Positions 5-11,494 of a stretch of DNA of 11,494 nt are shown in pieces. This stretch comes from a virus, in the UHGV virus genome UHGV-1946849, one strand, 5' to 3'. The notes beneath the pieces were generated by a model. That model did no database searches. It was not told where the DNA came from and saw nothing but the letters and a program-made list of their open reading frames with translations. Position numbers and translations under genes: made by a program. Within the stretch, counting starts at the first letter, position 1; every line of letters starts with the position of its first letter.

Positions 5-81
5 CTAGCGAATCACTCTTTAAAGAGCGAGAAAAAAGGCATGGAACAATATTTTATGCCTTTGTATTAACATGAATTTAA
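5..81. repeat. Left attachment-site direct repeat (attL candidate)
   Basis: 77 bp identical base for base to 11418..11494; identity breaks sharply at position 4 versus 11417. Contains a 7-bp stem inverted repeat AAGGCAT/ATGCCTT. Confidence 0.8.
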
Positions 82-213
82 AAGATTTTATTCTTACTGT
101 TTCATTTTCTGTAAATCATATATCCTCAGTATTTGACATTCATCACTCTAGCGGGAACAATACGACACAATAAGACACCTGATGACTCTTTAAGAAACGA
201 AAGGGGGGCAATA

Positions 214-402
214 GTGTTAAGCACTGATCGGTTTATACGTGAAAAAGAATGCGAAAAACTAACCGGCCTTAGCCGTACGTGTCGCTACCGCCTGGAAAAG
301 GCCGGACAATTCCCATCACGTCGTAAACTTGGCGGTCGTTCCGTTGGCTGGTCTTTATCCGAGGTTCTGGCCTGGAAGGATAGCTGCAAGGCAGTTCATT
401 AA
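214..402 (+). CDS. alpA: AlpA-family winged-helix transcriptional regulator / excisionase-like protein (62 aa from GTG 214; the track ORF extends to TTG 133)
   Basis: Translation RFIREKECEKLTGLSRTCRYRLEKAGQFPSRRKLGGRSVGWSLSEVLAW aligns with E. coli CP4-57 AlpA as recalled. GTG at 214 follows the Shine-Dalgarno AAGGGGGG (201..208); the upstream TTG at 133 lies inside a TTGACA hexamer. Confidence 0.8.
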   Translation: MLSTDRFIREKECEKLTGLSRTCRYRLEKAGQFPSRRKLGGRSVGWSLSEVLAWKDSCKAVH

Positions 403-547
403 TCACGCTGGCGGCACGCAGCCGCCACACATCAATCATCTGAACACAGAGCTATAACCATGAAGATTGAATATACGCCAGAACGTGGGCGGGGATTCGT
501 TCGCCCTGGTGAAACTGAAAAACAACAAAATTGGGGTTTTTCAGGTA

Positions 548-582
548 TAAAAAAAGCGGCCCCGAAATGGAGCCGCCTTTCT
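548..582 (-). terminator. Hairpin terminator, mainly for the leftward operon, possibly bidirectional
   Basis: A-run 548..555, stem GCGGC 556..560 and GCCGC 572..576, then CTTTCT; on the minus strand the stem is followed by TTTTTTT. Confidence 0.45.
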
Positions 583-671
583 GAACAGATAACCCGCTGC
601 GCCGTTTGTGTGTGTGATCCCAAACATAAGCACGGGGATGATAGCCGTTATCAGGCTGGTGGGCAATGCAA

Positions 672-845
672 TCAGTCTGGTTCAGTTCGTTGCCATACCT
701 GCAATGAGCGCTTTTCCCTGTACTCTTTAAGGAATTGCTCAAGGGCAAAAGCACATGGCGCGAATCTTTCTGATTCATGCTCTATCTTTCTGCGCCGTCT
801 TTTCCGTGCCGGTGATAATGTTTTGGTCAATTCTTTATCGGTCAT
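672..845 (-). CDS. Hypothetical small basic protein (57 aa), second gene of the leftward operon
   Basis: Minus-strand ORF with AGGA 7 nt upstream of the ATG at 845; protein-like K/R/E-rich sequence MTDKELTKTLSPARKRRRRKIEH...; followed by the 548..582 terminator. The track start at 860 lacks a ribosome-binding site. Confidence 0.35.
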   Translation of the reverse strand: MTDKELTKTLSPARKRRRRKIEHESERFAPCAFALEQFLKEYREKRSLQVWQRTEPD

Positions 846-902
846 TGTGTTGTCCTGCATAGCAATGCGCCGTAATACCTTACACCACGGCGCTGATGGT
901 GA

Positions 903-1082
903 TTACTCTGGTTCTTTGGCCTTGCGCCGCTGGCGATATTCAACTTCTCGTTTTAATGCCGCAGTAACAAATTGCCCCGTACTTTCGCCAGGCATTTTTA
1001 CCGCCTCAACATTGTTCATAACTTCATGCGGAACCCTTGCCGCAACGGTTTGTGATTTTGCGTTTACCGCTTTTGTCGCCAT
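903..1082 (-). CDS. Ribbon-helix-helix (Arc/CopG-like) DNA-binding protein, 59 aa, candidate repressor
   Basis: Hand translation of the minus strand gives MATKAVNAKSQTVAARVPHEVMNNVEAVKMPGESTGQFVTAALKREVEYRQRRKAKEPE. It shows the R-V-P-x-E-V strand, helix, G-x-S-T turn, helix pattern; GAGGGG ribosome-binding site 8 nt upstream. Below the 60-aa cutoff, so absent from the ORF track. Confidence 0.5.
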   Translation of the reverse strand: MATKAVNAKSQTVAARVPHEVMNNVEAVKMPGESTGQFVTAALKREVEYRQRRKAKEPE

Positions 1083-1132
1083 GTGGTGTACCCCTCATAA
1101 AAAACAAATGCAGTATGCAGGAAAAAAAATAA

Positions 1133-1184
1133 GTGTTCAACACTTGACGTGTTTAACACCTGGGTTTAAATTGGTGTTCAACAC
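1133..1184. promoter_or_regulatory. Divergent promoter region with three palindromic operators GTGTT(C/T)AACAC
   Basis: 11-bp palindromes at 1133..1143, 1149..1159 and 1174..1184. Rightward -35 TTGACG at 1144..1149 and -10 TAAATT at 1167..1172 (17-bp spacer); operators overlap the -35 and the predicted start. Confidence 0.55.
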
Positions 1185-1281
1185 CTTGTTGGCGCAAGGT
1201 GCAGAAACGACGAAACCCGGCAGTGCGCTAACACTAACCGGGCTTCTAACCACCAACGATAGCGAAAGTATCGAGGTAGCT

Positions 1282-1482
1282 ATGAGAAATCATACCACAC
1301 ACCCGCAAGGGCGGGACTCGCACAACCTGAATAAATACATCTGGCGTTTTATCGCCCTGAGCACGGCACAACCGCGCGTGATTACCATTGAGGCCACCAG
1401 CGAACAGGAAGCACGCCAGCAATCTCCGGCTGGCTGCGTGATGGTATTTGCTGCCCGTATTCGTCAGGGGGTAGGCTTATGA
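1282..1482 (+). CDS. Hypothetical protein (66 aa), first gene of the rightward operon
   Basis: ATG at 1282 preceded by GAGGT; its stop overlaps the next start (ATGA). It is the 3' part of the 460..1482 track ORF, whose upstream portion looks non-coding. Confidence 0.4.
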   Translation: MRNHTTHPQGRDSHNLNKYIWRFIALSTAQPRVITIEATSEQEARQQSPAGCVMVFAARIRQGVGL

Positions 1483-1709
1483 GCCAGGAAATCACACTAC
1501 AACAGGCAGCAGAACGCGCCCACCAAATCGAAGTTATTTGCGCACTGGCAGAGGATTACCCTGGCATGATGACCGACAGCGAATCAGGGGCAATCATCGG
1601 CTTACTTAAACGCCTTAGCGGTGAGGTCTGCGTATTCCTGAGCGATGAACAGGAAAGAAGAACGCTTATTTCTAACGAAAAAAAATGCGGAGGGGTACAT
1701 GTGCAATAA
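1479..1709 (+). CDS. Hypothetical protein (76 aa)
   Basis: ATG with upstream GGGGGTAGG; start overlaps the upstream stop; same strand as the operon. Confidence 0.5.
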   Translation: MSQEITLQQAAERAHQIEVICALAEDYPGMMTDSESGAIIGLLKRLSGEVCVFLSDEQERRTLISNEKKCGGVHVQ

Positions 1710-1920
1710 AACCACACCGGACGCAGCCGCCGCCGCGCTCACTACGCTGATGCACGCGCTTATTGATATTTCTGTTATTGCTGACAGGGCGCATAAACAC
1801 GCAGCCAGAGAATCAGAATGCATCTTCCATTTAGCATTTGTGCAGCTAAAAGCCGATCAGGCACTGGATAAGGCCGGAAAAATTATCATGGCTGATGTGC
1901 AGGAGGTGCACCATGCATAA
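1699..1920 (+). CDS. Hypothetical protein (73 aa from ATG 1699; the track ORF starts at 1645)
   Basis: ATG 1699 follows GGAGGGG (1689..1695) with a 3-nt spacer; no recognisable motif. Confidence 0.45.
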   Translation: MCNKTTPDAAAAALTTLMHALIDISVIADRAHKHAARESECIFHLAFVQLKADQALDKAGKIIMADVQEVHHA

Positions 1921-2278
1921 TCTGTCAATTTCTGACCTTAACAGCATTCAGTTTGATGAGAAATTTACCGGGCAGTTGCTGGTCAATGTGGAGAACGGGC
2001 GCATAGTGCGTAATTATCACCTGCCGGATGGTGCAATTGCCGGAAGCGTTGAAGCATTGCTGGAACTGGCGGAACGTGCGCGACTGATTAAGCCGTCAAC
2101 GAGCCATCACGATGATGATCTGCATTTTACCGGATGTATGGTGAGTCACTACGAAAACGGCGTCGAGGTATCCTGTGAACGGCTGCGTGATGATTGCTGT
2201 TTCGGCACACTGCCGGAATTTATCGAGTTGCTGACCAGTTGCGGTTATCAGGTCATTCAGGGGGGTAAACATGCGTGA
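1913..2278 (+). CDS. Hypothetical protein (121 aa from ATG 1913; the track ORF starts at 1895)
   Basis: AGGAGG ribosome-binding site 6 nt upstream of ATG 1913; overlaps the preceding stop. Confidence 0.5.
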   Translation: MHNLSISDLNSIQFDEKFTGQLLVNVENGRIVRNYHLPDGAIAGSVEALLELAERARLIKPSTSHHDDDLHFTGCMVSHYENGVEVSCERLRDDCCFGTLPEFIELLTSCGYQVIQGGKHA

Positions 2279-2504
2279 TGATCGTTTTAATTCCCTGAAA
2301 CAGGAATTTTCCGGCGTTCCTGATGATGCGGCTGATGCGCTTTCGTCAATGCCAGAACTTATTAGAGCGGCTTTTTTCTTACTTTCCACGAGAGAATATA
2401 AATCAACGGGGCTTGATGTACTGAATATCGCCGCCGATTATGCGGAATATGTGGCAGAGGCGCGTTATAGAAGAAAATTTCCTGAGGATGTAAGCCATGC
2501 GTGA
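2271..2504 (+). CDS. Hypothetical protein (77 aa)
   Basis: ATG after GGGGGGTAAAC; ATGCGTGA start/stop overlap with the upstream gene. Confidence 0.5.
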   Translation: MRDDRFNSLKQEFSGVPDDAADALSSMPELIRAAFFLLSTREYKSTGLDVLNIAADYAEYVAEARYRRKFPEDVSHA

Positions 2505-2730
2505 TATTTACCACGAAACAATAGACCGCGCATTTCTTGCACTTTCTCACAGTGAAAACATGCTGGAAATATTGCGCATATGGCTTGAAACACTTGGCGA
2601 CAATGAACGCGACAAACAAAAATCAAGAATTGCCACGGCATTAATAACGCTTCTTGAGCCTGTAATAATGGAACTGCAAGAAATAGATCTATTGCACGAC
2701 AGATATAAAGAACAGCACACCGGAGAATAA
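2497..2730 (+). CDS. Hypothetical protein (77 aa)
   Basis: Same ATGCGTGA overlap junction as at 2271; acidic, helical-looking sequence. Confidence 0.5.
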   Translation: MRDIYHETIDRAFLALSHSENMLEILRIWLETLGDNERDKQKSRIATALITLLEPVIMELQEIDLLHDRYKEQHTGE

Positions 2731-2735
2731 AAATA

Positions 2736-3035
2736 ATGAAACTTAAATATTCTGGCTTAACTGCCAGTGGCAACACTCACCCTAAATTTACGCGCGGCGA
2801 TATTTACCGCGACCAGTACGGCGGCACGGTAATGATTAAGGGCGTGGAAGAACGGCGCGTAACCTACCGCCGTGAAGGTTACGAATATGATTGCGTGATG
2901 CCTGTTTATCAGTTCCGGCGTGATTTTTCTCTGGTACAGACCGCGCCGCATAACGTGTCCACCAGCAACGCCAGGGCACGGGCAAACATCCAGAAGCTGA
3001 AAACCATGATTAACGGATTCAGGGGTAAAAAATGA
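2736..3035 (+). CDS. Hypothetical protein (99 aa) immediately upstream of and coupled to the primase gene
   Basis: GGAGA ribosome-binding site; stop overlaps the primase ATG (ATGA). Confidence 0.55.
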   Translation: MKLKYSGLTASGNTHPKFTRGDIYRDQYGGTVMIKGVEERRVTYRREGYEYDCVMPVYQFRRDFSLVQTAPHNVSTSNARARANIQKLKTMINGFRGKK

Positions 3036-4786
3036 AACTGGCACCGAACGTAAAACAGCAGTCACGCGGCATAAAACACAAAGAAACAGAAGTCATTATT
3101 TTTGCGGGTAGTGATGCCTGGTCACACGCAAAACAATGGCAGGGACATGACGCGCGTATGGCCGGAGATAATGAGCCTCCTGTGTGGCTTGGGGAGCAGC
3201 AGTTATCCGAACTGGATAAGCTGCAAATTGTGCCGGAAGGCAGAAAATCCGTGCGCATATTCAGGGCCGGATATCTTGCGCCAGTAATGATAAAGGCGAT
3301 TGGTCAGAAGCTGGCGGCGGCAGGCGTACAGGATGCAAATTTTTACCCTGATGGTATGCACGGTCAGAAGGTGGAGAACTGGCGCGAATATCTGGCCCGT
3401 GAGCGCCAGAATCTTTCTGATGGTCTGGTCATTGAGCTTCCGGTAAAGCAAAAGGCGCAACTTTCGCAGATGGCGGACAGTGAGCGCGCGCAGCTGCTTG
3501 CCGATCGCTTTGATGGCGTTTGCGTACATCCTGAAAGTGAAATCGTTCACGTATGGCGCGGCGGGGTATGGTGTCCGGTCAGCACAATGGAACTTAGCCG
3601 CGAAATGGTGGCGATCTATTCAGAGCACAGGGCCACTTTCAGCAAGCGCGTAATCAATAACGCCGTGGAAGCGTTAAAAGTTATTGCCGAACCAATGGGC
3701 GAGCCGTCCGGCGATTTGTTGCCGTTCGCCAATGGTGCGCTTGACCTGAAAACGGGGGAATTTTCCCCGCACACGCCGGAGAACTGGATCACCACGCACA
3801 ACGGCATTGAGTACACGCCACCAGCACCAGGGGAGAACATCCGCGATAACGCGCCAAACTTTCATAAATGGCTTGAGCACGCAGCCGGAAAAGACCCGCG
3901 CAAGATGATGCGTATATGTGCCGCGCTGTACATGATTATGGCGAACCGGTACGACTGGCAGATGTTTATTGAGGCCACCGGAGACGGCGGGAGCGGTAAA
4001 AGTACATTCACACACATAGCCAGCCTTCTGGCAGGGAAACAGAACACGGTAAGCGCTGAAATGACATCGCTTGATGATGCTGGTGGACGTGCGCAGGTTG
4101 TCGGGAGTCGTCTTATCGTCCTGGCTGACCAGCCGAAATATACAGGCGAAGGAACGGGCATCAAGAAAATCACGGGCGGTGACCCCGTGGAAATTAACCC
4201 GAAATACGAAAAGCGTTTCACGGCGGTAATCAGGGCGGTGGTGCTGGCGACCAACAATAACCCGATGATATTCACCGAACGGGCCGGAGGTGTGGCACGT
4301 CGTCGCGTGATTTTCCGTTTCGACAATATCGTCAGTGAGGCCGAAAAAGACAGGGAGCTACCGGAAAAGATCGCGGCTGAAATCCCTGTCATTATCCGCC
4401 GATTGCTGGCGAACTTTACCGACCCTGAGAAGGCACGGGCTTTACTACTGGAACAGCGTGACGGTGATGAAGCTCTGGCAATAAAGCAACAGACGGATCC
4501 GGTTATTGAGTTTTGCCAGTTCCTGAATTTTCTGGAGGAAGCACGCGGCCTGATGATGGGCGGCGGTGGCGATTCAGTGAAGTACACGACCAGAAACAGC
4601 CTTTACCGCGTCTATCTGGCGTTTATGGCGTACGCAGGCAGGAGCAAACCGCTAAACGTAAATGACTTTGGCAAGGCTATGAAGCCAGCCGCGAAAGTTT
4701 ACGGACATGAATATATTACGCGGAAAGTTAAGGGAGTAACGCAGACTAACGCAATAACAACAGACGAGTGCGACGCGTTTTTATAA
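3032..4786 (+). CDS. Replication protein: P4-family primase C-terminal domain / D5-N plus SF3 helicase (584 aa)
   Basis: Walker A GDGGSGKST, a D5-N-like segment LPFANGALDLKTGEF...NGIEY and an SF3 motif C VVLATNNNP; size and layout match Pri-Rep proteins of P4-like elements and PICIs. Confidence 0.88.
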   Translation: MKLAPNVKQQSRGIKHKETEVIIFAGSDAWSHAKQWQGHDARMAGDNEPPVWLGEQQLSELDKLQIVPEGRKSVRIFRAGYLAPVMIKAIGQKLAAAGVQDANFYPDGMHGQKVENWREYLARERQNLSDGLVIELPVKQKAQLSQMADSERAQLLADRFDGVCVHPESEIVHVWRGGVWCPVSTMELSREMVAIYSEHRATFSKRVINNAVEALKVIAEPMGEPSGDLLPFANGALDLKTGEFSPHTPENWITTHNGIEYTPPAPGENIRDNAPNFHKWLEHAAGKDPRKMMRICAALYMIMANRYDWQMFIEATGDGGSGKSTFTHIASLLAGKQNTVSAEMTSLDDAGGRAQVVGSRLIVLADQPKYTGEGTGIKKITGGDPVEINPKYEKRFTAVIRAVVLATNNNPMIFTERAGGVARRRVIFRFDNIVSEAEKDRELPEKIAAEIPVIIRRLLANFTDPEKARALLLEQRDGDEALAIKQQTDPVIEFCQFLNFLEEARGLMMGGGGDSVKYTTRNSLYRVYLAFMAYAGRSKPLNVNDFGKAMKPAAKVYGHEYITRKVKGVTQTNAITTDECDAFL

Positions 4787-4800
4787 TTTTTTGTAATTGC

Positions 4801-5026
4801 TGTCTACCCTGTCTACCTGAGTAAAGAAAAATACATTTAATTCAGTGCATTAAGTTAGGTAGATAGCCTTTTTTTACTGTCTACCCACTATCTACCCTCT
4901 CTACCTGATTTTACCTGAATCAGACAGGGAGGTAGACACGGGGTAGATAGTGGATAAAAGCACTCTACCCCGCTGAAAGCCGCGCCATTACTGGTATGAG
5001 GGCCACTAAGGTAGATAAGGTAGACA
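4801..5026. repeat. Iteron cluster, candidate replication origin / cis replication region
   Basis: At least 11 copies of (G/T)TCTACC(C) in both orientations (forward at 4802, 4811, 4879, 4890, 4900, 4964; reverse GGTAGA at 4858, 4931, 4942, 5010, 5019), non-coding, directly downstream of the primase gene. Confidence 0.6.
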
Positions 5027-5074
5027 AGGGGAGGCACAACTCAAAACTTTTTAAACGAGGGGGTAAAAATAAAT

Positions 5075-5353
5075 ATGCACACTTCAGGGAAATTTAATAA
5101 ATCACTCAAAAAACGCAGAGACAGAACAGAACCGAAATATCGCGCGTTAGACATGACAGAGCACGCTTTAAAGGTGGCAATCAGAACGATAGACCGCCAC
5201 GCGGGGGAAGGATACGCGAAAGCACATCCCGAACTGATAAGCGCATTCATGACCACGACGGCGGCAAATTTTGCCACGCTGACAGAGCGGGAGATTGCCG
5301 AAGCGGAACAGGTAACAACCATCAACGTTAAAACCGGAGAGGTGGAATCATGA
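5075..5353 (+). CDS. Hypothetical protein (92 aa), coupled to the ssb-like gene
   Basis: GAGGGGG ribosome-binding site upstream; stop overlaps the next ATG (ATGA). Confidence 0.55.
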   Translation: MHTSGKFNKSLKKRRDRTEPKYRALDMTEHALKVAIRTIDRHAGEGYAKAHPELISAFMTTTAANFATLTEREIAEAEQVTTINVKTGEVES

Positions 5354-5772
5354 CAGCACAGATAGCAGCTTACGGGCGGCTGGTGGACGACCCGCAGGTA
5401 AAACAGACCAGCAAGGGCACACCGATGACGCTGGCGCGTATGGCGGTCCCCCTTCCGTGCAGCCAGGCAGATGACGGAACGGCGACGATGTGGTTATCCG
5501 TCCTGGCATTTGGCAGACAGGCCGAAGCACTGGAAAGGCACCGCAAGGGTGAACTCCTGAGCGTGGCGGGTAACATGCAGATCAGCCAGTGGACTGGGCA
5601 GAACGGAGAAACGCGGCAGGGCTGGCAGGTTATCGCAGACAGTGTAATCAGTGCGCGAACGGCGCGACTGGGCGGCAAAAAAGGTCAACAGGGCCAGGCT
5701 ACTGACGCGCTGAACAGGGCAAAACAACAGGCGGGGAATGATGATCCGTACGGGGATAACATACCGTTTTAA
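5350..5772 (+). CDS. ssb: Single-stranded DNA-binding protein homologue (140 aa)
   Basis: OB-fold segment WLSVLAFGRQAEALERHRKGELLSVAGNMQISQWTGQNGETRQGWQVIADSV aligns with E. coli SSB [52 protein letters not shown]; Gly/Gln-rich linker; C-terminal DDPYGDNIPF resembles the SSB acidic tip DDDIPF. Confidence 0.8.
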   Translation: MTAQIAAYGRLVDDPQVKQTSKGTPMTLARMAVPLPCSQADDGTATMWLSVLAFGRQAEALERHRKGELLSVAGNMQISQWTGQNGETRQGWQVIADSVISARTARLGGKKGQQGQATDALNRAKQQAGNDDPYGDNIPF

Positions 5773-5787
5773 GCGACGAGTGACAGA

Positions 5788-5811
5788 AGCCGGAGCAATC
5801 CGGCTTTTTTA
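5788..5811 (+). terminator. Rho-independent terminator after the ssb-like gene
   Basis: Stem GCCGGA (5789..5794), loop GCAA, stem TCCGGC (5799..5804), then TTTTTT. Confidence 0.7.
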
Positions 5812-5860
5812 CGGGTCCTCCTGGCGGGGTGGGCCTGAACACGGGGCGGGAAGCGCGGAA
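5811..5860 (+). other. Degenerate cos-like relic (cosQ-like with a disrupted cosN)
   Basis: ACGGGTCCTCCTGG...ACGGGGCGGGAAGCGCGG parallels the intact copy at 8253..8300 (ACGGGTCCTTTCCGG...ACGGGGCGGCGACCTCGCGG), and the preceding terminator hairpin is duplicated too. Confidence 0.5.
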
Positions 5861-5990
5861 AAAAGCGCATTTTTGTGATTTTATCGTCATCATCATCATG
5901 AGCGTAATTTATTGTTTTTAATTGTTTTGATGCAAAAAAGATGATGGTTGTGGTTAATTTTCGTTCGACATCTTTGCAGGCAGATAAAAA

Positions 5991-6027
5991 AGCCCGATAA
6001 GGTCAGAGGTGGCTTATCGGGCTTTTG
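5991..6027. terminator. Strong hairpin, bidirectional terminator-like
   Basis: Perfect 11-bp inverted repeat AGCCCGATAAG / CTTATCGGGCT with an 11-nt loop, flanked by an A-run upstream and TTTT downstream. Confidence 0.5.
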
Positions 6028-6103
6028 CATATGAGGCTTTTTGGTGCACTGACACACATGAGCGGGATCATCATTTCATAATTTGCAACACAACTCAATA
6101 TCA

Positions 6104-6152
6104 TTGCACAAAACGCAATCCTGATTATAATCAGAGCTGGATGAACATCCAG
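6104..6152 (+). promoter_or_regulatory. Candidate sigma-70 promoter of the capsid operon with a 16-bp palindrome at the predicted start
   Basis: -35 TTGCAC (6104..6109), 16-bp spacer, -10 TATAAT (6126..6131); perfect palindrome CTGGATGAACATCCAG at 6137..6152. Confidence 0.5.
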
Positions 6153-6187
6153 TTATGATTTTTTAAGTCGAAGAGGAATTTCTTACT

Positions 6188-6394
6188 ATGGCTGAAGAGA
6201 AAAAAGGCGGTGTTTCGGTGTACATAAGCCCCGAAATCGTGGAGGTGCTCAAGCAGCGCCACAAAAAAAACTATGAGGCTGGCGTGGCGGCTGGACTGGA
6301 TCCGCTGATGACGCCGGAGCCGTCGATAGGTTCACTTGTACGCTCTTATTTACTTGCGGCGCTTGGGATGCATAAAAATTATGGGGGTGAATAA
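6188..6394 (+). CDS. Hypothetical small protein (68 aa) translationally coupled to the capsid gene
   Basis: AAGAGGA ribosome-binding site; stop TAA overlaps the capsid ATG (TAATG). Confidence 0.6.
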   Translation: MAEEKKGGVSVYISPEIVEVLKQRHKKNYEAGVAAGLDPLMTPEPSIGSLVRSYLLAALGMHKNYGGE

Positions 6395-7449
6395 TGGCAG
6401 GCAAAGCAACGGCACTTAACACTAACCAGCTTTTCATGTACCTGAATCGCGGGGATATTGCGGATTTTAAATTCAGCCCTCTGTTTACTACGCTGTTTTT
6501 CCCGAACGTGGCGACATTCAGCACGCAAAACATCATGCTGGATACCCTGGACATTGAAGAAGTCACCATGTCGGCGTTTTGTTCGCCTATGGTGGGTAGC
6601 CAGGTTCAGCGCGATAAAGGGTACGAAACCAGCACGATTAAACCTGGCTACATGAAGCCAAAGCACGAAATCGATCCAACGAAAACCATCATGCGCATGG
6701 CTGGAGAAGATCCGGCACAGCTTAACGACCCTACCTATCGCCGTATGCGCCTGATTACTGGCAATATGCGCCGCCAGATAAACGCCATAAAAGCGCGCGT
6801 GGAATGGCTGGCGGTAAATGCGGTAACGACCGGAAAAAACATCATTGAGGGCGAAGGCATAGAGCGCTATGAAATCGACTGGAAGATACCGGAAAAAAAC
6901 ATCATAGAGCAGGCCGACGGGAAAAAATGGTCAGCGCAGGACAAAGAAACCCACGATCCAATCTATGATATCGAACTATACGCCGATCAGGCTGGTTGCC
7001 CCGCAAACGTCATGATTATGGGCGCTGAGGTATGGCGAACGTTACGCAGCTTTAAAAAATTCCGTGAGCTGTACGATCTTTCCCGTGGTTCAGAATCCGC
7101 CGCCGAACTGGCCTGTAAAAACCTGGGCGAAGTGGTGAGCTTTAAAGGCTATCTTGGTGATCTGGCCCTTATCGTCTATTCCGGCAAATACACTGACAGC
7201 GATGGTACCGAAAAATATTTCCTTGAGCCTGATTTGCTGGTCCTAGGTAACACCAACAATAAAGGGCTGGTGGCCTATGGTGCGATAATGGATCAGGAAG
7301 CGGTAAGAACGGGCGCAACACAAAACATGTTTTACCCGAAAAACTGGATTGAGGACGGCGATCCGGCGATTGAGTACGTGCAGACACACAGTGCACCGCA
7401 GCCGGTACCGGCAGATATTCGCAAATTTGTTACCGTCAAAATTGGTTAA
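6394..7449 (+). CDS. Major capsid protein, lambda gpE-like (351 aa)
   Basis: Colinear similarity to lambda E as recalled: FSPLF..LFF, KPGYMKPKHEIDP, DPTYRRMR, GSESAAELACKNLGEVVSFKGYLGDLALIVYSGKYTD, LVLGNT, YPKNW, GDPA. Confidence 0.9.
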   Translation: MAGKATALNTNQLFMYLNRGDIADFKFSPLFTTLFFPNVATFSTQNIMLDTLDIEEVTMSAFCSPMVGSQVQRDKGYETSTIKPGYMKPKHEIDPTKTIMRMAGEDPAQLNDPTYRRMRLITGNMRRQINAIKARVEWLAVNAVTTGKNIIEGEGIERYEIDWKIPEKNIIEQADGKKWSAQDKETHDPIYDIELYADQAGCPANVMIMGAEVWRTLRSFKKFRELYDLSRGSESAAELACKNLGEVVSFKGYLGDLALIVYSGKYTDSDGTEKYFLEPDLLVLGNTNNKGLVAYGAIMDQEAVRTGATQNMFYPKNWIEDGDPAIEYVQTHSAPQPVPADIRKFVTVKIG

Positions 7450-7461
7450 CGGGGGGATTCT

Positions 7462-7797
7462 ATGGACACTCCATACATTGAGTTATTTGCAGGCAGTCAG
7501 CGGGTCGCCACGACGCTGGTACATTTTGCCGCTGATGCTGGCGTTATTCAGGAATTTACCCCGCTGATGCTGGCAGACAATGGCGAGTTTAAGCCGTGGG
7601 ATGGTCAGGAATCTGGCAAGGCTGTTTATCTGACCTCGTACCCTGTGGACACGTCAAAGCAGAAATCAGCACAGTGTTACAAGACGGGGATTTTCAATAT
7701 TGCCGCCGTTAACTGGCCTGAGAGCGTCGACACCGATGCGAAAAAATGCGCCGCCTTTGCGGGTTCCGGCGTATCCGTTCAGCCGCTGGCCCGATAA
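7462..7797 (+). CDS. Head decoration protein, lambda gpD-like (111 aa)
   Basis: FTPLMLAD, WDG, YKTGIFN, WPES and KKCAAFAGSG match the lambda D motifs TPLMLDT, WDG, YKSGTFR, WPEA and KKRTAFAGT. Confidence 0.82.
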   Translation: MDTPYIELFAGSQRVATTLVHFAADAGVIQEFTPLMLADNGEFKPWDGQESGKAVYLTSYPVDTSKQKSAQCYKTGIFNIAAVNWPESVDTDAKKCAAFAGSGVSVQPLAR

Positions 7798-7809
7798 GCA
7801 GGGGGAACG

Positions 7810-8223
7810 ATGGCAACGAATGAAAGCGTCATGACGCTACCGCTGGCGAGTAAATTTAAAGCCGAAGCGCGGGCAATGGCTGACAGAGGTTTATCAACCT
7901 ACGAGGCCGTATATCAACTCAACAAACTGGAAGAGCAGGACAAGCCGCGCGCTGATGCGATTATGGCGCTTCATGAACATAACGACTATCAGCCGCTGTT
8001 ACGTGCAATGGCAAACGTGCCATGTATTAGCGTCGATAATGCTCGTGAAATCCTGAACATGACCATAGAGCAGGAGCGCCCAAAGGTTGCGCCGGAGCTT
8101 ACCGCAGCCTTTGAAAACTTTATGGACATGCACAGCCCGAAAGCCGTATCACCCGGCATGGCATACGACGGCAGAAACCAGGGCGATGAAGGCGACGTCG
8201 ATCGCATACTGAAAACCATCTGA
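7810..8223 (+). CDS. Hypothetical protein (137 aa), last gene of the capsid operon
   Basis: GGGGGAA ribosome-binding site; followed by the terminator at 8229..8252. Confidence 0.6.
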   Translation: MATNESVMTLPLASKFKAEARAMADRGLSTYEAVYQLNKLEEQDKPRADAIMALHEHNDYQPLLRAMANVPCISVDNAREILNMTIEQERPKVAPELTAAFENFMDMHSPKAVSPGMAYDGRNQGDEGDVDRILKTI

Positions 8224-8228
8224 CATAA

Positions 8229-8252
8229 GGCCGGAGAAATCCGGCTTTTTTT
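8229..8252 (+). terminator. Rho-independent terminator
   Basis: Stem GCCGGA (8230..8235), loop GAAA, stem TCCGGC (8240..8245), then TTTTTTT; near-identical to the terminator at 5788..5811. Confidence 0.7.
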
Positions 8253-8310
8253 ACGGGTCCTTTCCGGCATATGGACCCGTTACGGGGCGGCGACCTCGCG
8301 GGTTTTCGCT
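8253..8310 (+). other. Lambda-type cos site (cosQ and cosN with the 12-nt cohesive end GGGCGGCGACCT at 8285..8296) with a truncated cosB
   Basis: ACGGGTCCTTTCCGG...GTTACGGGGCGGCGACCTCGCGGGTTTTCGCTATTTATGA matches the lambda cos junction as recalled; it then diverges to CGTTTTTCCGTG, and the Nu1-like gene starts only about 90 bp downstream. Confidence 0.85.
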
Positions 8311-8385
8311 ATTTATGACGTTTTTCCGTGAAGGTGACACCACCACCACTTGATTAATATTTAACCATGCAGTTAAGGTAACATT

Positions 8386-8820
8386 ATGATTGATAAAGCT
8401 TGTTTTGTAAGTCAGCAGGAAATAGCTGAACATTTCAAGGTTAACAGAACCACTATTCGCGCATGGACCAAACAGGGGATGCCGTATCTTAATGCGGATC
8501 GCGGAAAGTCTGGCGGTTATCACATCGGGCATACATTGCTTTGGTCTTCAGGTAAAAGCCGTCTTGAGACCATCAGATATCACGTAGAAACCAGTGCGCT
8601 GGAAAAAATTATGTTTGCCAGGCTGCTTTCATCTGAGCGTGACGAGTACTCCAGTGAAGAAACAGAACATCGATTTGATGAAGGTTTGCAGATTTACGGC
8701 TATTCACCGGAAGATGTGAGCAAGGCACGAAATAAAATGGCTGGCTTTCTGGCTGGGTGGCGTCATGCCATAAGCGTTCGCCGTGCCAGCATGGAGCAAT
8801 CAGCCGATACAGAACAGTAA
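8386..8820 (+). CDS. Small terminase (lambda Nu1)-like protein, candidate Rpp-type packaging-redirection factor (144 aa)
   Basis: N-terminus VSQQEIAEHFKVNRTTIRAWTKQGMPYLNADRGKSGGYHIGHTLLWSSGKS aligns with lambda Nu1 VNKKQLADIFGASIRTIQNWQEQGMPVLRGGGKGNEVLYDSAAVIKWYAER; no large terminase gene follows. Confidence 0.78.
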   Translation: MIDKACFVSQQEIAEHFKVNRTTIRAWTKQGMPYLNADRGKSGGYHIGHTLLWSSGKSRLETIRYHVETSALEKIMFARLLSSERDEYSSEETEHRFDEGLQIYGYSPEDVSKARNKMAGFLAGWRHAISVRRASMEQSADTEQ

Positions 8821-8887
8821 AGCCGATAACTTGTTAATCACTCGCAGCAATGCATGTGATTTGTGCACACTTTCGGTTAACTGGTTC

Positions 8888-9066
8888 GATGTCCGGTTTT
8901 AGTGTCTGTTTTTTGCGCATGTCCGGTTCATGGAAAGCATGTTTTTATATTTTTCATATGGTTAACTTGCAGAGAAACCGGACATGGATCCCGAAAAATT
9001 TTCATAAATAGTGAAAACGCGCGAGGTCGCCGCCCCGTAACGGGCCATAATTCCAGGAAGGACCCG
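8888..9066 (-). other. Second lambda-type cos site in inverted orientation, with a distinct cosB made of three ATGTCCGGTT elements
   Basis: Reverse complement of 9001..9066 reads ACGGGTCCTTCCTGG...GTTACGGGGCGGCGACCTCGCGCGTTTTCACTATTTATGAA (cohesive end at 9024..9035); R-like elements at 8889..8898, 8919..8928 and inverted at 8976..8985, with an AT-rich spacer between. Confidence 0.75.
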
Positions 9067-9099
9067 ACGACACCAGACTATCAGAGCGATGGGGGCACA

Positions 9100-9381
9100 A
9101 TGACAGAAGCCGAACTACTGGGATTAATCCGCCGCGTTACCGGAATCAGCCAGCAGCATGACGAACAGGCCACGCAGCCGGACAGCGTGACCGCCGAAAA
9201 TTACGCGCGTGTGGTTGCTGAGGTGATGCGCCGTGATGGTATCCAGCTTAATGATGTGGATATGCGCAACATACGGATCCGCGTTCTTGAAATGCTGGCC
9301 TACAATCGCCGCGTGGCACTGTATCGGGAAACGGAGAAAATTACGTACCACTGGAAGAAGCCGGAGCGGTTACGGCGTTAA
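9100..9381 (+). CDS. Hypothetical protein (93 aa from ATG 9100; the track ORF starts at 8902 inside the cos sequence)
   Basis: ATG 9100 preceded by GGGGG; upstream in-frame sequence is the inverted cos site. Confidence 0.5.
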   Translation: MTEAELLGLIRRVTGISQQHDEQATQPDSVTAENYARVVAEVMRRDGIQLNDVDMRNIRIRVLEMLAYNRRVALYRETEKITYHWKKPERLRR

Positions 9382-9397
9382 CGAGTAGCGACATACC

Positions 9398-9556
9398 GTG
9401 ACGGAGAGTGACAACCAGTGACACGCCGTGACAAAAGACGGTTTAACCGTTAATTAAAAATTGACGGGATTTTGTGCTTTCCGGACGACGTGACCAACGT
9501 CATTTTTTAGCGAAAAGTTCTGATTAAGGTCATTGTCTGAATGGTCATAATGACCA
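9398..9556. promoter_or_regulatory. Array of GTGAC-family binding-site repeats
   Basis: Four GTGAC copies at exactly 10-bp phasing (9398, 9408, 9418, 9428), an inverted pair GTGACCAACGTCAT (9490..9503), and the palindrome TGGTCATAATGACCA (9542..9556). Confidence 0.5.
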
Positions 9557-9717
9557 CTCCTACAAAACAGGTAAAGCCCACCAGCCTGATTAACAGTTAA
9601 CCGGAAAAAAAATCCGGTAGCCCCGTTATGGGGATCCCCATATCAACATTAACGCCCCTCATGAATTAGCGCGCTTCCCCCTGGAAAGATGACCCGCCTG
9701 TATATTTCTTGTGTCTA

Positions 9718-10012
9718 TTTGTTCCACGTTGTTTCATACAGTGCACCGAACGGTGTAGTCACTGGTGTAGTCATTTTGCGATTTATGGCACTTTTTGTAG
9801 TGCAAATCATTTAATTAAATCAATGCGTTAAGTGAAATTAGTTATATATAACAGCATTTTATCATTTAGTGTTTTTTGCTGTTTCATAATGTTTCAGGCT
9901 GTGCATTATGTTTTTGATTATCAACAGATTTGTGATTTTCCTTGTTCCAGCTTGTTTCACGTTGTAGCCCTTTGTGCAACGATCGGTGTAGTCACTGGTG
10001 TAGTCACTTTTT
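9718..10012. repeat. Duplicated element of about 60 bp upstream of int, each copy ending in tandem GGTGTAGTCA repeats
   Basis: CGGTGTAGTCACTGGTGTAGTCA at 9751..9773 and 9984..10006 with similar upstream context, flanking an AT-rich stretch of about 200 bp. Confidence 0.6.
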
Positions 10013-10031
10013 CGTAAAGAGGGGGTAAAAC

Positions 10032-11261
10032 GTGAGCAGAGCAATGAACAAACTGAGCGATACCTTGCTAAGGAAACTTCATGGTAAGCCAGCGGAGAAA
10101 AACACGTTTTATAGTGATGGCGGAAACCTGAGCGTGAAATATTTAACATCAGGGAAATTGACCTGGTATTTCACATACAGGGCCGGAACGGGAAGGGAGA
10201 CACGACCCGAACGCATTAAGCTGGGAAGTTATCCTGATCTGAGCCTGAAAGCAGCCAGGGAAAAAGCCGCACAGTGTCGCACATGGCTGGCTGAGGGGAA
10301 AAATCCACGTCATGAGATGAATTACACCGTACAGGAAGCGTTAAAGCCCGTAACGGTTGGCGATGCGCTCACCTACTGGCTTGAGTATTACGTAAAGGAA
10401 AACCGCGTGGATTATATCGCCCTGAAAAGGCGACTTAATAATCACGTAATACAGCAGATTGGTGCTATGCCGCTGGATAAATGCGAGCTACGGCACTGGC
10501 TGGCCTGTTTTGACCAGGTGGTAAAGCGAACGCCTGTTACTGCCGGATTCGTGCTACAGGCGTGCAAACAGGCGCTTAAGTTCTGCCGTAGGCGGCGCTA
10601 TGCAATCAGCAACGTTCTGGACGATCTGAACGTTGCGGACGTTGGGAAAAAACCGGATATAAGCGAACGTGTCTTAAGTAACAAAGAACTTGGCGAATTA
10701 TTGCAGGCACTGGACAAAAAAATATTCTCCCCTTACTACGTCGCGTTAATCCGCCTCCTGATTGTCTTCGGAGCCAGAACGGTAGAACTGAGGTTATCGG
10801 AGATCGGGGAGTGGGATTTTACGGAAATGCTATGGACCGTTCCGAAGGAGCACAGCAAAACGAAGGTCGCAATATTCCGGCCCATACCGGAAGCGATCCT
10901 GCCGTTCGTCACGCAGCTGGTGGAGCAGAACAGGCACACGGGCTTATTGCTGGGGGAAGTGAAACAGGAGGCCAGCGTATCGCAGTATGGAAGATTAGCG
11001 CACAGGAGGCTTAATCACCCTCACTGGTCACTGCATGACATCCGGCGCACCTTTACAACCATGCTGAACGATTTAGGCGTTGATCCGCATGTCGTGGAGC
11101 AGCTTACAGGCCACCAGATGCCAGGAATGCAGCGAGTTTATAATCATTCCCGTTATCTGGATGCGAAACGCAATGCGCTGGATATGTGGACGGAGCGGTT
11201 AGGGATACTGGCGGGAACACATGAAAACGTAACCACGCTACCCGTAGCCAGAAGAAAATAA
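10032..11261 (+). CDS. int: Tyrosine recombinase, P4-type integrase with N-terminal arm-binding domain (409 aa)
   Basis: N-terminal arm-binding-domain pattern (DGGNLSVKYLTSGKLTWYFTYR...IKLGSYPDLSLKAAREKA); catalytic region with R..HDIRRT..LTGH..Y residues; GTG start after GAGGGGG. Confidence 0.93.
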   Translation: MSRAMNKLSDTLLRKLHGKPAEKNTFYSDGGNLSVKYLTSGKLTWYFTYRAGTGRETRPERIKLGSYPDLSLKAAREKAAQCRTWLAEGKNPRHEMNYTVQEALKPVTVGDALTYWLEYYVKENRVDYIALKRRLNNHVIQQIGAMPLDKCELRHWLACFDQVVKRTPVTAGFVLQACKQALKFCRRRRYAISNVLDDLNVADVGKKPDISERVLSNKELGELLQALDKKIFSPYYVALIRLLIVFGARTVELRLSEIGEWDFTEMLWTVPKEHSKTKVAIFRPIPEAILPFVTQLVEQNRHTGLLLGEVKQEASVSQYGRLAHRRLNHPHWSLHDIRRTFTTMLNDLGVDPHVVEQLTGHQMPGMQRVYNHSRYLDAKRNALDMWTERLGILAGTHENVTTLPVARRK

Positions 11262-11278
11262 TTTTTTTCGTGTTTTTT

Positions 11279-11355
11279 CAGTATGCGCATACTGGATATG
11301 CGAACAGATACAACGTGCAACAATGAGCAACAATGTGGAACAACTACGAACAAGA
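11279..11355. promoter_or_regulatory. Candidate integrase arm-type / accessory sites next to the right repeat
   Basis: Perfect 16-bp palindrome CAGTATGCGCATACTG (11279..11294) and (C/G)AACAA repeats at about 10-bp phasing (11302..11355, including GCAACAATG twice). Confidence 0.4.
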
Positions 11356-11417
11356 GGCGAAAAAGCGTACGGATTTATAAGTAGCTGATTTTTAATGTGT
11401 TACTGGTTTTTTGTACA

Positions 11418-11494
11418 CTAGCGAATCACTCTTTAAAGAGCGAGAAAAAAGGCATGGAACAATATTTTATGCCTTTGTATTAACATGAATTTAA
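11418..11494. repeat. Right attachment-site direct repeat (attR candidate)
   Basis: Identical to 5..81; the window ends at the repeat end, so the identity could extend further. Confidence 0.8.

Follow-up and report, generated by a model that had tools for sequence, protein, structure and literature searches.

The attP of a phage-inducible chromosomal island that integrates in tqsA, with doubled units in both arms and a variable 3′ spacer

Phage-inducible chromosomal islands (PICIs) of the type of EcCICFT073 and EcCIO42 from Escherichia coli are described as carrying two sites, cos1 and cos2, and a 144-residue RppA (PMC6092414, PMC6739421). Published experiments on EcCICFT073 report that the island excises, integrates, replicates and transfers, that a plasmid carrying int and attPI integrates, that circular forms are detected and that AlpA activates its own promoter (PMC6092414). 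In helper-embedded PICIs (HE-PICIs), the attPs contain a doubled motif, tgTGTATTGCantgTGTATTGCa, 81 ± 2 bp upstream of their centre and a co-oriented copy 132 ± 2 bp downstream; this motif was stated not to be found in other PICIs, and either the arm domains of Int or AlpA were proposed as its binder (PMC10111431). At attL/PintS of KplE1 and in P4, Int and a directionality factor repress int (PMC2951348). Here we analysed a stretch of viral DNA of 11,494 nucleotides (UHGV virus genome UHGV-1946849), which we refer to as the window, and in particular the repeat-rich region upstream of its integrase gene, int. We find that positions 9566–10031 are the attP of a PICI of the EcCICFT073/EcCIO42 family, which undergoes strand exchange with tqsA within the core ATAACAGCA, and that a variable spacer (9383–9565) precedes it. 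Taken as a whole, and including the Int and AlpA sites that we predict in the two arms, we regard this interpretation as highly probable. The stretch is best labelled an attP with a 3′ spacer, and not a regulatory operator or an origin.

An attP that recombines with tqsA

The window is a circular permutation of an 11.4-kb island of the EcCICFT073/EcCIO42 family that integrates in tqsA, with the right end of the island joined to its left end. Positions 5–9856 and 9848–11494 together match one integrated 11.4-kb island in tqsA of E. coli CFSAN067215 at 99.9% identity. Compared separately, 8300–9856 is 100% identical to the right end of the island of E. coli 042, which lies beside a truncated tqsA, and 9848–11494 is 99.9% identical to the left (int-side) end of tqsA islands such as that of FORC_069. 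The boundaries of the matches to integrated islands fall at 9848 and 9856. In a four-way alignment of the window, tqsA of K-12 (attB), and attL and attR of 042, the only block common to all four is ATAACAGCA (9848–9856), and the flanks are exchanged as for attP × attB giving attL + attR. As the flanks recombine around ATAACAGCA, the region contains attP, and strand exchange with tqsA takes place within this core. The initial annotation, made from the sequence alone, had described a repeat-rich regulatory region upstream of int whose helical phasing implied binding of a single cooperative regulator. The position upstream of int, the phasing and the picture of a non-coding region rich in repeats of protein-binding type are all supported, and the region almost certainly holds the int promoter; what was missed is its identity as attP, with a crossover at 9848–9856.

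The region is recognisable as the attP of a heterobivalent tyrosine integrase from the block of identity with attB, from the adjacent int, which encodes a catalytic and a separate arm-binding domain, and from arm repeats that flank the core on both sides at conserved distances. The int gene (10032–11261, plus strand) encodes a tyrosine recombinase that matches Arm-DNA-bind_3 (residues 8–95, 1.5e-18), Phage_integrase (residues 214–375, 2.9e-16) and phrog_1. Islands at tqsA, roxA/phoQ, clpS/cspD, yifB and other targets keep the stretch from 9566 to int, except for the roughly 23 bp that border the core on each side, and the cores themselves are unrelated to one another (ATAACAGCA, GGACATATTT, ATGATAGTTAT and AATAGCGGAT). 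The CFT073 island, for example, has another integration site, yet both of its arms are kept to about 23 bp from the core. A tRNA scan found no tRNA, and Rfam gave no match at the gathering score or at E ≤ 1, which indicates neither an RNA-gene target nor a known RNA. In one IMG/VR contig (L288), int and the core ATAACAGCA are as in the window and the left flank is unlike E. coli tqsA; this flank could belong to a second target or to a divergent allele of tqsA.

Excised circles, concatemers and tandem copies all contain such a junction of right end to left end. The window is terminally redundant, its last 75 nt (11420–11494) being equal to nt 5–79, and its first four nucleotides, GCAT, match neither the terminal repeat nor the integrated island. 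The assembled chromosome of E. coli EC444 (L001) has a capsid-forming PICI (cf-PICI) in tandem, in two or more copies, with a junction of the attP type where terL/p93 meets int. The window itself is a mosaic that combines a CFT073-like replication module with an 042-like right end.

Two arms of conserved geometry

The P arm (9566–9847, plus strand) is the right end of the island, on the attR side when integrated. It is 100% identical to attR of E. coli 042 up to 9856, and is conserved in CFT073 (phoQ site), in the cf-PICI of EC444 and in cf-PICIs at yifB and phoQ to about 23 bp from the crossover. The P′ arm (9857–10031, plus strand) is the left end of the island, on the attL side. Both are built around a duplicated element of 76 nt (9702–9777 and 9935–10010; 76% identical and 233 bp apart). 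This duplication had been noted in the initial annotation, at the positions at which we find it; the two copies are the two arms of attP.

Each arm contains three 10-bp-phased TTGTnnC boxes followed by a doubled 12-bp unit, GGTGTAGTnnnT. In the P arm, the boxes stand at 9709, 9719 and 9729 (9709–9735, plus strand), starting 43 bp before the doubled motif GGTGTAGTCACT GGTGTAGTCATT (9752–9775, plus strand, 12-bp period), which contains candidate Int arm-type sites. In the P′ arm, boxes at 9942, 9952 and 9962, followed by TTGTGCA at 9972 (9942–9978, plus strand), also start 43 bp before the doubled motif, which here consists of two copies of GGTGTAGTCACT (9985–10008, plus strand; period 12, 2.0 copies and 100% match in TRF) and lies 24–47 bp upstream of the GTG start of int. 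The sequence GGTGTAGT occurs four times in the whole window, always on the plus strand and always within the two arm elements (9752, 9764, 9985 and 9997).

The placement of the doubled motifs relative to the crossover is nearly constant. In reconstructed attPs, with distances measured from the core centre (9852 in the window), the units of the P and P′ arms start at −100/−88 and +133/+145 for tqsA (the window), −103/−91 and +130/+142 for phoQ, −100/−88 and +132/+144 for clpS, and −100/−88 and +133/+145 for yifB; the geometry is thus held to within 3 bp across four groups of att sites. A second Int family shares it, with a unit of another sequence: an island at tRNA-Pro/yejO, which has an unrelated P4-type Int, carries the unit GCTAYACG (GCTACACGnnnnGCTATACG) at −86/−74 and +134/+146. 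In the P′ arm, the spacing from TTTATCA to the doubled motif was 127 bp in 9/9 sequences measured, which cover at least 5 att sites and Int identities of 75–100%.

The repeats of the arms are constant across islands that differ in their replication and packaging modules. In related islands the tandem unit is GGTGTAGTTAAT, without GTCAC, and GGTGTAGT is invariant; in a clade with 75% Int identity, TTGTTCG occurs three times at the position of the P-arm trio. Between the P-arm element and the core, AATCAATGCGTTA (9818–9830, plus strand; 22–34 bp left of the crossover) is the sole exact match in the window to WATCAANNNNTTR, the consensus for integration host factor (IHF), and is thus a putative IHF site. 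In five relatives an IHF-type site lies 53–54 bp past the point at which the second unit of the doubled motif starts, and in L008 this distance is 64 bp.

Further elements occupy the rest of the two arms. At the outer end of the P arm are a Chi site (9578–9585, minus strand), which lies where the conserved P arm begins and is present in duplicate in some relatives, a hairpin with the stem CCGGA...TCCGG (9601–9617) and a perfect 16-bp palindrome, TATGGGGATCCCCATA (9627–9642), about 215 bp left of the core. This palindrome is kept in most relatives, cf-PICIs included. The P′ arm begins with a conserved core-proximal sequence, TTTTATCATTTAGTG (9857–9871), continues with TGTTTCA at 9880 and 9890 (+28 and +38 from the core centre) and includes the ribosome-binding site of int, AGAGGGGG (10019–10026). 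Two open reading frames in this part of the window (9832–10017 and 9862–10149) had been judged to be of low complexity and probably non-coding, which is plausible. The lack of family support and the interruption of the open frame in relatives agree with that judgement, and the call of a hypothetical protein of 60 aa by PGAP, the automatic annotation of NCBI, does not. A minus-strand open frame has 63 aa in the 75%-Int clade versus about 98–99 aa in closer relatives, and the DNA motifs are kept.

Predicted binders of the arm repeats

Within the doubled unit, the eight bases at the 5′ end are invariant and the last four vary with the allele of the Int N-terminal domain. Integrases with SVKYLTSGK accompany units ending in CACT, CATT or TACT in both arms (window, L283, L304 and the yifB island), and those with SVRHSTSGL accompany units ending in TAAT or CAAT, again in both arms (CFT073, the clpS island, L305–L362, L335/336 and L350/352). 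The unit is constant across AlpA alleles, replication proteins and packaging modules. In view of this co-variation, the arm domains of Int appear to be the likeliest binders of the doubled units, and an Int tetramer would have one arm domain for each of the four half-sites.

The TTGTnnC boxes are found beyond attP. Five 10-bp-phased boxes of this type (GnnACAA on the plus strand) lie between int and alpA (11307–11355, minus strand), and two or three more (GGAACAA, GACACAA and GACACC) lie at 152–178, over the putative −10 element of the alpA promoter (TTGACA-N17-AACAAT, 133–161). In a clade with divergent AlpA, TTGTTCG is present both in the arms and upstream of alpA. Given these further copies near alpA, the activation by AlpA of its own promoter in EcCICFT073 (PMC6092414) and the excisionases in its family, this excisionase-family activator is, by analogy with the phased boxes of Cox and Apl, the likelier binder of the TTGTnnC boxes, with Int as the alternative.

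It is improbable, in our view, that the roles are exchanged, with AlpA or another directionality factor of the island binding the doubled GGTGTAGT units and Int using the TTGTnnC boxes as its arm sites in the same attP. Such an exchange would agree with the multiple phased arm sites on both arms that are typical of lambda-type integrases, with the persistence of TTGT boxes in the arms of the divergent-AlpA clade and with the study of HE-PICIs, which leaves Int, AlpA and an unknown protein as possible binders (PMC10111431). However, GGTGTAGT is the same across markedly different AlpA proteins, the variable end of the unit tracks the Int N-domain allele, and where Int is of another family the doubled unit is another one too, in the same geometry; moreover, boxes of the TTGT type lie over the alpA promoter, a known target of AlpA (PMC6092414).

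Arrays of a second kind are found just after int in related islands. In the divergent-AlpA islands L350, L352 and L338, and in L364 (clpS), three to four copies of a GATATTT-type motif at 10-bp spacing occupy the position of the GnnACAA boxes of the window, and the right-end spacers of islands such as CFT073 and EC444 contain TGATATTTTCG motifs that resemble this array. No pairing of boxes in the right-end spacer with those in the int–alpA spacer (GATATTT versus GnnACAA types) was consistent across islands. The Pseudomonas AlpA element (GGGACG) was considered as a guide to AlpA sites and is not applicable, as that AlpA is much larger and has a Q-like fold.

The int promoter and a proposed mechanism

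The GTG start of int at 10032 lies 24 bp past the doubled unit of the P′ arm. In the integrated island, tqsA lies upstream of 9848, so the int promoter, Pint, must be within the P′ arm. On the basis of these arrangements we propose that the N-terminal domains of an Int tetramer would bind the four doubled half-sites at a fixed distance from the core, and that an IHF-type bend at 9818–9830 would help to fold the P arm back onto the core. Binding of AlpA to the phased TTGTnnC boxes in attP and at the alpA promoter would couple excision to induction, and occupancy of the P′ arm by recombination proteins may modulate int expression, as in KplE1 and P4.

Several points weigh against this interpretation. 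The GCAT start of the window does not fit a simple circular overlap, which makes a tandem copy or an assembly artefact indistinguishable from a true circle. A scan of 9300–10100 found no sigma-70 consensus promoter, and Pint is not placed. The assignments of Int and AlpA rest on geometry and co-variation. Part of this co-variation could be explained by linkage alone, as the P′ doubled unit lies only about 25–150 bp from the codons of the Int N-domain, and the copies in the P arm provide only four independent att groups. Six of the ten plus-strand TTGTnnC matches in the window fall in the arms, an enrichment that is inflated because the motif was defined after viewing the sequence. In the divergent clade, a phased array of four GATATTT copies takes the place of the TTGT boxes just after int, which complicates a model with a single binder. 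The phased GTGAC array of the spacer is left unexplained by the model. Finally, AlpA is reported to have left Pint-lacZ expression unchanged in EcCICFT073 (PMC6092414).

A swappable spacer with a phased GTGAC array

To the left of the P arm, homology to CFT073 (island between roxA and phoQ), EC444, TUM9803 and others is lost precisely from the stop codon of a gene for a 93-aa protein to about position 9565. Unrelated sequence substitutes for this spacer, of about 250 bp in CFT073 and about 490 bp in EC444. At most 267/5426 E. coli genomes have the spacer module; 1414 have the right end of the island. Because EcCICFT073 excises, integrates, replicates and transfers without it (PMC6092414), the module is accessory. 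The comparison suggests that 9383–9565 is a swappable 3′ module after the last gene of the island that would be dispensable for recombination. The initial annotation was to be refuted if deletion of the repeats had no effect on int expression, excision or replication. Natural variants go part of the way to such a refutation: EcCICFT073, which is without 9383–9565, is functional, and TUM9803 is without the array only.

Two terminator-like hairpins lie in the spacer (9447–9467, and 9487–9501 followed by T6; both within 9447–9508, plus strand). The inverted pair described previously, GTGAC at 9490 and GTCAT at 9499, is present and is part of the second of these (GACGT-GACCA-ACGTC, then T6), which has a terminator-like score. 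A terminator scan returned 3 terminator-like sites versus 0.9 expected, the RNA fold of 9375–9660 has z = −3.7, and relatives have a longer stem, ATGACGTggccaACGTCAT, followed by T6. The hairpins probably end the rightward operon that runs from alpA to the gene of the 93-aa protein (p93). Further right is a perfect 15-bp palindrome, TGGTCATAATGACCA (9542–9556), also at its previously described position. It belongs to the variable spacer and is conserved within this spacer module, with a compensatory variant, TGGTGATAATCACCA, in L008.

The most regular feature of the spacer is an array of GTGAC at 9398, 9408, 9418 and 9428. These exact 10-bp steps are as first described, and we add a degenerate fifth copy, GCGAC, in phase at 9388. 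With its unrelated 5-nt spacers, the array (9388–9432, plus strand) forms a portable module of about 55 bp. In 0/2000 dinucleotide-preserving shuffles of the window did any 5-mer occur four times at exact 10-bp phasing. The four spacers (ATACC, GGAGA, AACCA and ACGCC) are about 30% identical in pairs by our own count, which is near random. Natural variants of the array have four substitutions in the spacers and one in the degenerate first copy, and the four GTGAC are unaltered; this confinement of the substitutions argues for selection on the phased GTGAC. The module is found at varying positions in the right-end spacers of PICIs and cf-PICIs (L008, L010, L011 and L012) and in six IMG/VR contigs, and is missing from CFT073, EC444 and TUM9803. 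The spacer of TUM9803 retains the hairpins and the palindrome, and lacks the GTGAC array alone. We conclude that the array is non-random, portable between islands, accessory and probably functional.

A role of the array as a dedicated docking platform for some DNA-binding protein of the island or of its helper phage is one speculative possibility, to which we attach little probability. Read on the minus strand, the units of the array (TTGTCAC, GTGTCAC and so on) loosely fit TTGTnnC, in the orientation of the boxes after int and at the alpA promoter. As an extra cluster of AlpA-type sites, the array could link the end of the operon to excision or induction, titrate a factor, or serve segregation or packaging of the circle.

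It is likewise improbable that the array has no function and was left over neutrally from a tandem duplication of 10 bp. Phased 5-mer arrays are indeed common in viral contigs regardless of the 5-mer (in IMG/VR, GAGTC × 4 at 45 loci, GTCAG × 4 at 106 and GTGAC × 4 at at least 120), and relatives do without this array. Set against this, the GTGAC cores are identical while the spacers between them are near random, natural substitutions spare the four GTGAC, and the module has been moved intact between PICI and cf-PICI backgrounds.

Further explanations of the array were tried and rejected. A universal GTGAC-binding factor or a special iteron is at odds with the IMG/VR counts, given that the control 5-mers have 45 and 106 loci to the at least 120 of GTGAC, and that only six of the GTGAC loci are PICIs. 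The MatP site matS (GTGACRNYGTCAC, a 13-bp palindrome with GTGAC half-sites) has no match in the region even with two mismatches. A cosB for RppA–TerS is rejected because more than 1 kb separates the array from cosN and because cf-PICIs without Rpp have the array as well; no exact cosN occurs within 9383–10031. The adjacent 93-aa protein has no support as the binder, being also encoded by islands without the array; its fold model is uninformative. In four unrelated IMG/VR contigs (L023, L034, L043 and L051), 10-bp-phased GTGAC arrays lie about 0.4–0.8 kb from an SSB gene, and these are probably origin iterons of other elements. A search of a phage collection with the region found no homologue and a single weak match, of 9467–9526 to the lysis regions of Stx phages (60 nt, 77%, E about 1e-3).

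Two unlikely proposals: a common half-site and a second origin

According to the initial annotation, the array, the inverted pair, the palindrome and the tandem GGTGTAGTCA copies all have a GTGAC/GTCAC half-site in common, to which one regulator would bind cooperatively, possibly to control int. We consider this very unlikely. In its favour, GTGAC or GTCAC does stand in the array (9398–9432), at position 9490 and in three of four tandem units, the arm unit includes GTCACTGGT, which is an array unit in reverse complement, and the phasing is exact. However, islands of the CFT073 type, of the clpS type and other relatives have GGTGTAGTTAAT without GTCAC, and it is GGTGTAGT that is retained in their arms. 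L008 and L012, whose arms are of the GTTAA type and lack GTCAC, retain the GTGAC array unchanged. EcCICFT073, which has a functional Int of 91% identity (PMC6092414), does without the module that holds the array, the hairpin and the palindrome, and the inverted pair forms a hairpin that precedes a run of T. The repeats make up four or more classes that are unrelated and differ in their patterns of conservation, and a single cooperative regulator is not supported.

The weakest proposal, that the region is a second replication origin or resembles P4 ori–crr, with the phased repeats as iterons of a primase–helicase, is contradicted by an origin-type structure with unrelated CTGTCTACC iterons beside the primase gene (4790–5030), by arm repeats that go with the integrase gene and are identical in islands with a RepA helicase (042 and the clpS island), a D5-type primase (the window and CFT073) or DUF927 (the yifB island), and by the fixed distance of the repeats to the crossover and not to any replication gene. 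In its favour, boxes of the type TGTTCCAC resemble the type I iteron of P4 (TGTTCACC), the duplication of about 76 nt is reminiscent of the two 120-bp repeats of P4 crr, and the right-end spacer of the yifB cf-PICI (L011, about 1045–1215) contains three copies of GCGGGTTA, an AT-rich stretch and three copies of TAACCCGC. This origin-like iteron module of L011 occupies the position in the spacer that holds the GTGAC array. A scan of genome contigs with Int returned one locus only and was uninformative. In the window, 4790–5030 lies downstream of the primase gene and comprises CTGTCTACC-type iterons in direct orientation, iterons of the GGTAGAC type in inverted orientation and, between them, AT-rich DNA, a layout that fits the one published for PICI origins (PMC6092414).

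Gene content and other features of the island

Pfam and PHROG scans of the window identified a PICI-type gene set: AlpA (214–402), a D5-type primase (3032–4786), SSB, a lambda-type capsid E, a decoration protein D, a 144-aa protein with an N-terminal HTH (8386–8820), which is RppA, and Int. The exact lambda cosN (GGGCGGCGACCT) occurs twice in opposite orientation, at 8285–8296 (plus strand) and 9024–9035 (minus strand). This pair corresponds to cos1, upstream of rppA, and cos2 of islands of the EcCICFT073 type; cos2 lies inside a longer mechanical open reading frame (8902–9381) and upstream of the annotated gene for the conserved 93-aa protein (phrog_1561; 9100–9381).

The 93-aa protein is encoded by the last gene in both the classical PICIs and the cf-PICIs examined. 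Its single-sequence AlphaFold model consists of three helices (pLDDT 72.7), with no fold match in the PDB below E = 1 and no family assignment. Just past the stop codon of int is a perfect 16-bp palindrome, CAGTATGCGCATACTG (11279–11294).

Exact Chi (GCTGGTGG) occurs nine times in 11.5 kb, at 655, 1394, 2959, 3818, 4079, 5379, 7266, 9578 and 10916 (5 on the plus and 4 on the minus strand), compared with 0.29 expected from shuffles. This density also appears to be well above the average of the E. coli genome. The Chi sites may shield linear or concatemeric DNA of the satellite from RecBCD.

Comparison with known systems

The feature is largely of a known kind and our results are an incremental refinement of known biology. 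What is new is the extension of the doubled arm-unit architecture to the integrase clade of EcCICFT073, EcCIO42 and cf-PICIs and to the tRNA-Pro island, the co-variation of the arm unit with the Int N-domain, and the TTGT boxes that link attP with the alpA promoter. Fixed geometry, combined with a core specificity that changes among at least 5 chromosomal targets, provides a simple rule both for finding the attPs of PICIs and for predicting the pairing of integrase alleles with arm units, and each of these uses would help to engineer PICI-based delivery vectors. Should AlpA bind the phased TTGT boxes in attP as well as those at the alpA promoter, these shared sites would tie excision directly to induction.

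The closest systems are the attPI and int of EcCICFT073 and EcCIO42, which belong to the same family (PMC6092414): the right end of the window is 100% identical to that of 042, the arms are common with EcCICFT073, and int is the first gene, followed by alpA. The difference from EcCICFT073 is in the core, which targets roxA/phoQ in that island and tqsA in the window. The text consulted of that account gives no fine structure of the attP arms.

The attPs of HE-PICIs are similar in having a tandem 12-bp unit in two co-oriented copies, and in the window the nearest edges of these copies lie 77 bp upstream and 133 bp downstream. The units themselves have only gTGTAnT in common, with TGTATTGC as the HE-PICI core versus GGTGTAGTCACT in the window, which indicates a variant of the architecture with a different motif. 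Unlike in the HE-PICI report, the units of the window are flanked by phased TTGTnnC boxes. With KplE1 and P4, the window has in common an int promoter within the attL/P′ arm, so that sites for Int and the directionality factor would overlap the promoter region and negative autoregulation is predicted; it differs in that the target is a protein-coding gene and not a tRNA, and AlpA had no effect on Pint-lacZ in EcCICFT073.

The attP of lambda likewise has a heterobivalent integrase with an N-terminal arm domain, repeated arm sites to the left and right of a short core and an AT-rich extent of about 300–450 bp, and its IHF site has a putative counterpart in the consensus match next to the core of the window. 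Here, by contrast, the arm domain is Arm-DNA-bind_3 (P4 type), two doubled units stand in place of P1, P2 and P′1–3, and int is downstream of attP and transcribed away from it. Cox of P2 and Apl of 186 bind helically phased direct repeats at attP and at promoters, and the TTGTnnC boxes are similarly placed at attP and at the alpA promoter; AlpA is of another family (Pfam Phage_AlpA), and the boxes, here predicted to be AlpA sites, are present on both arms.

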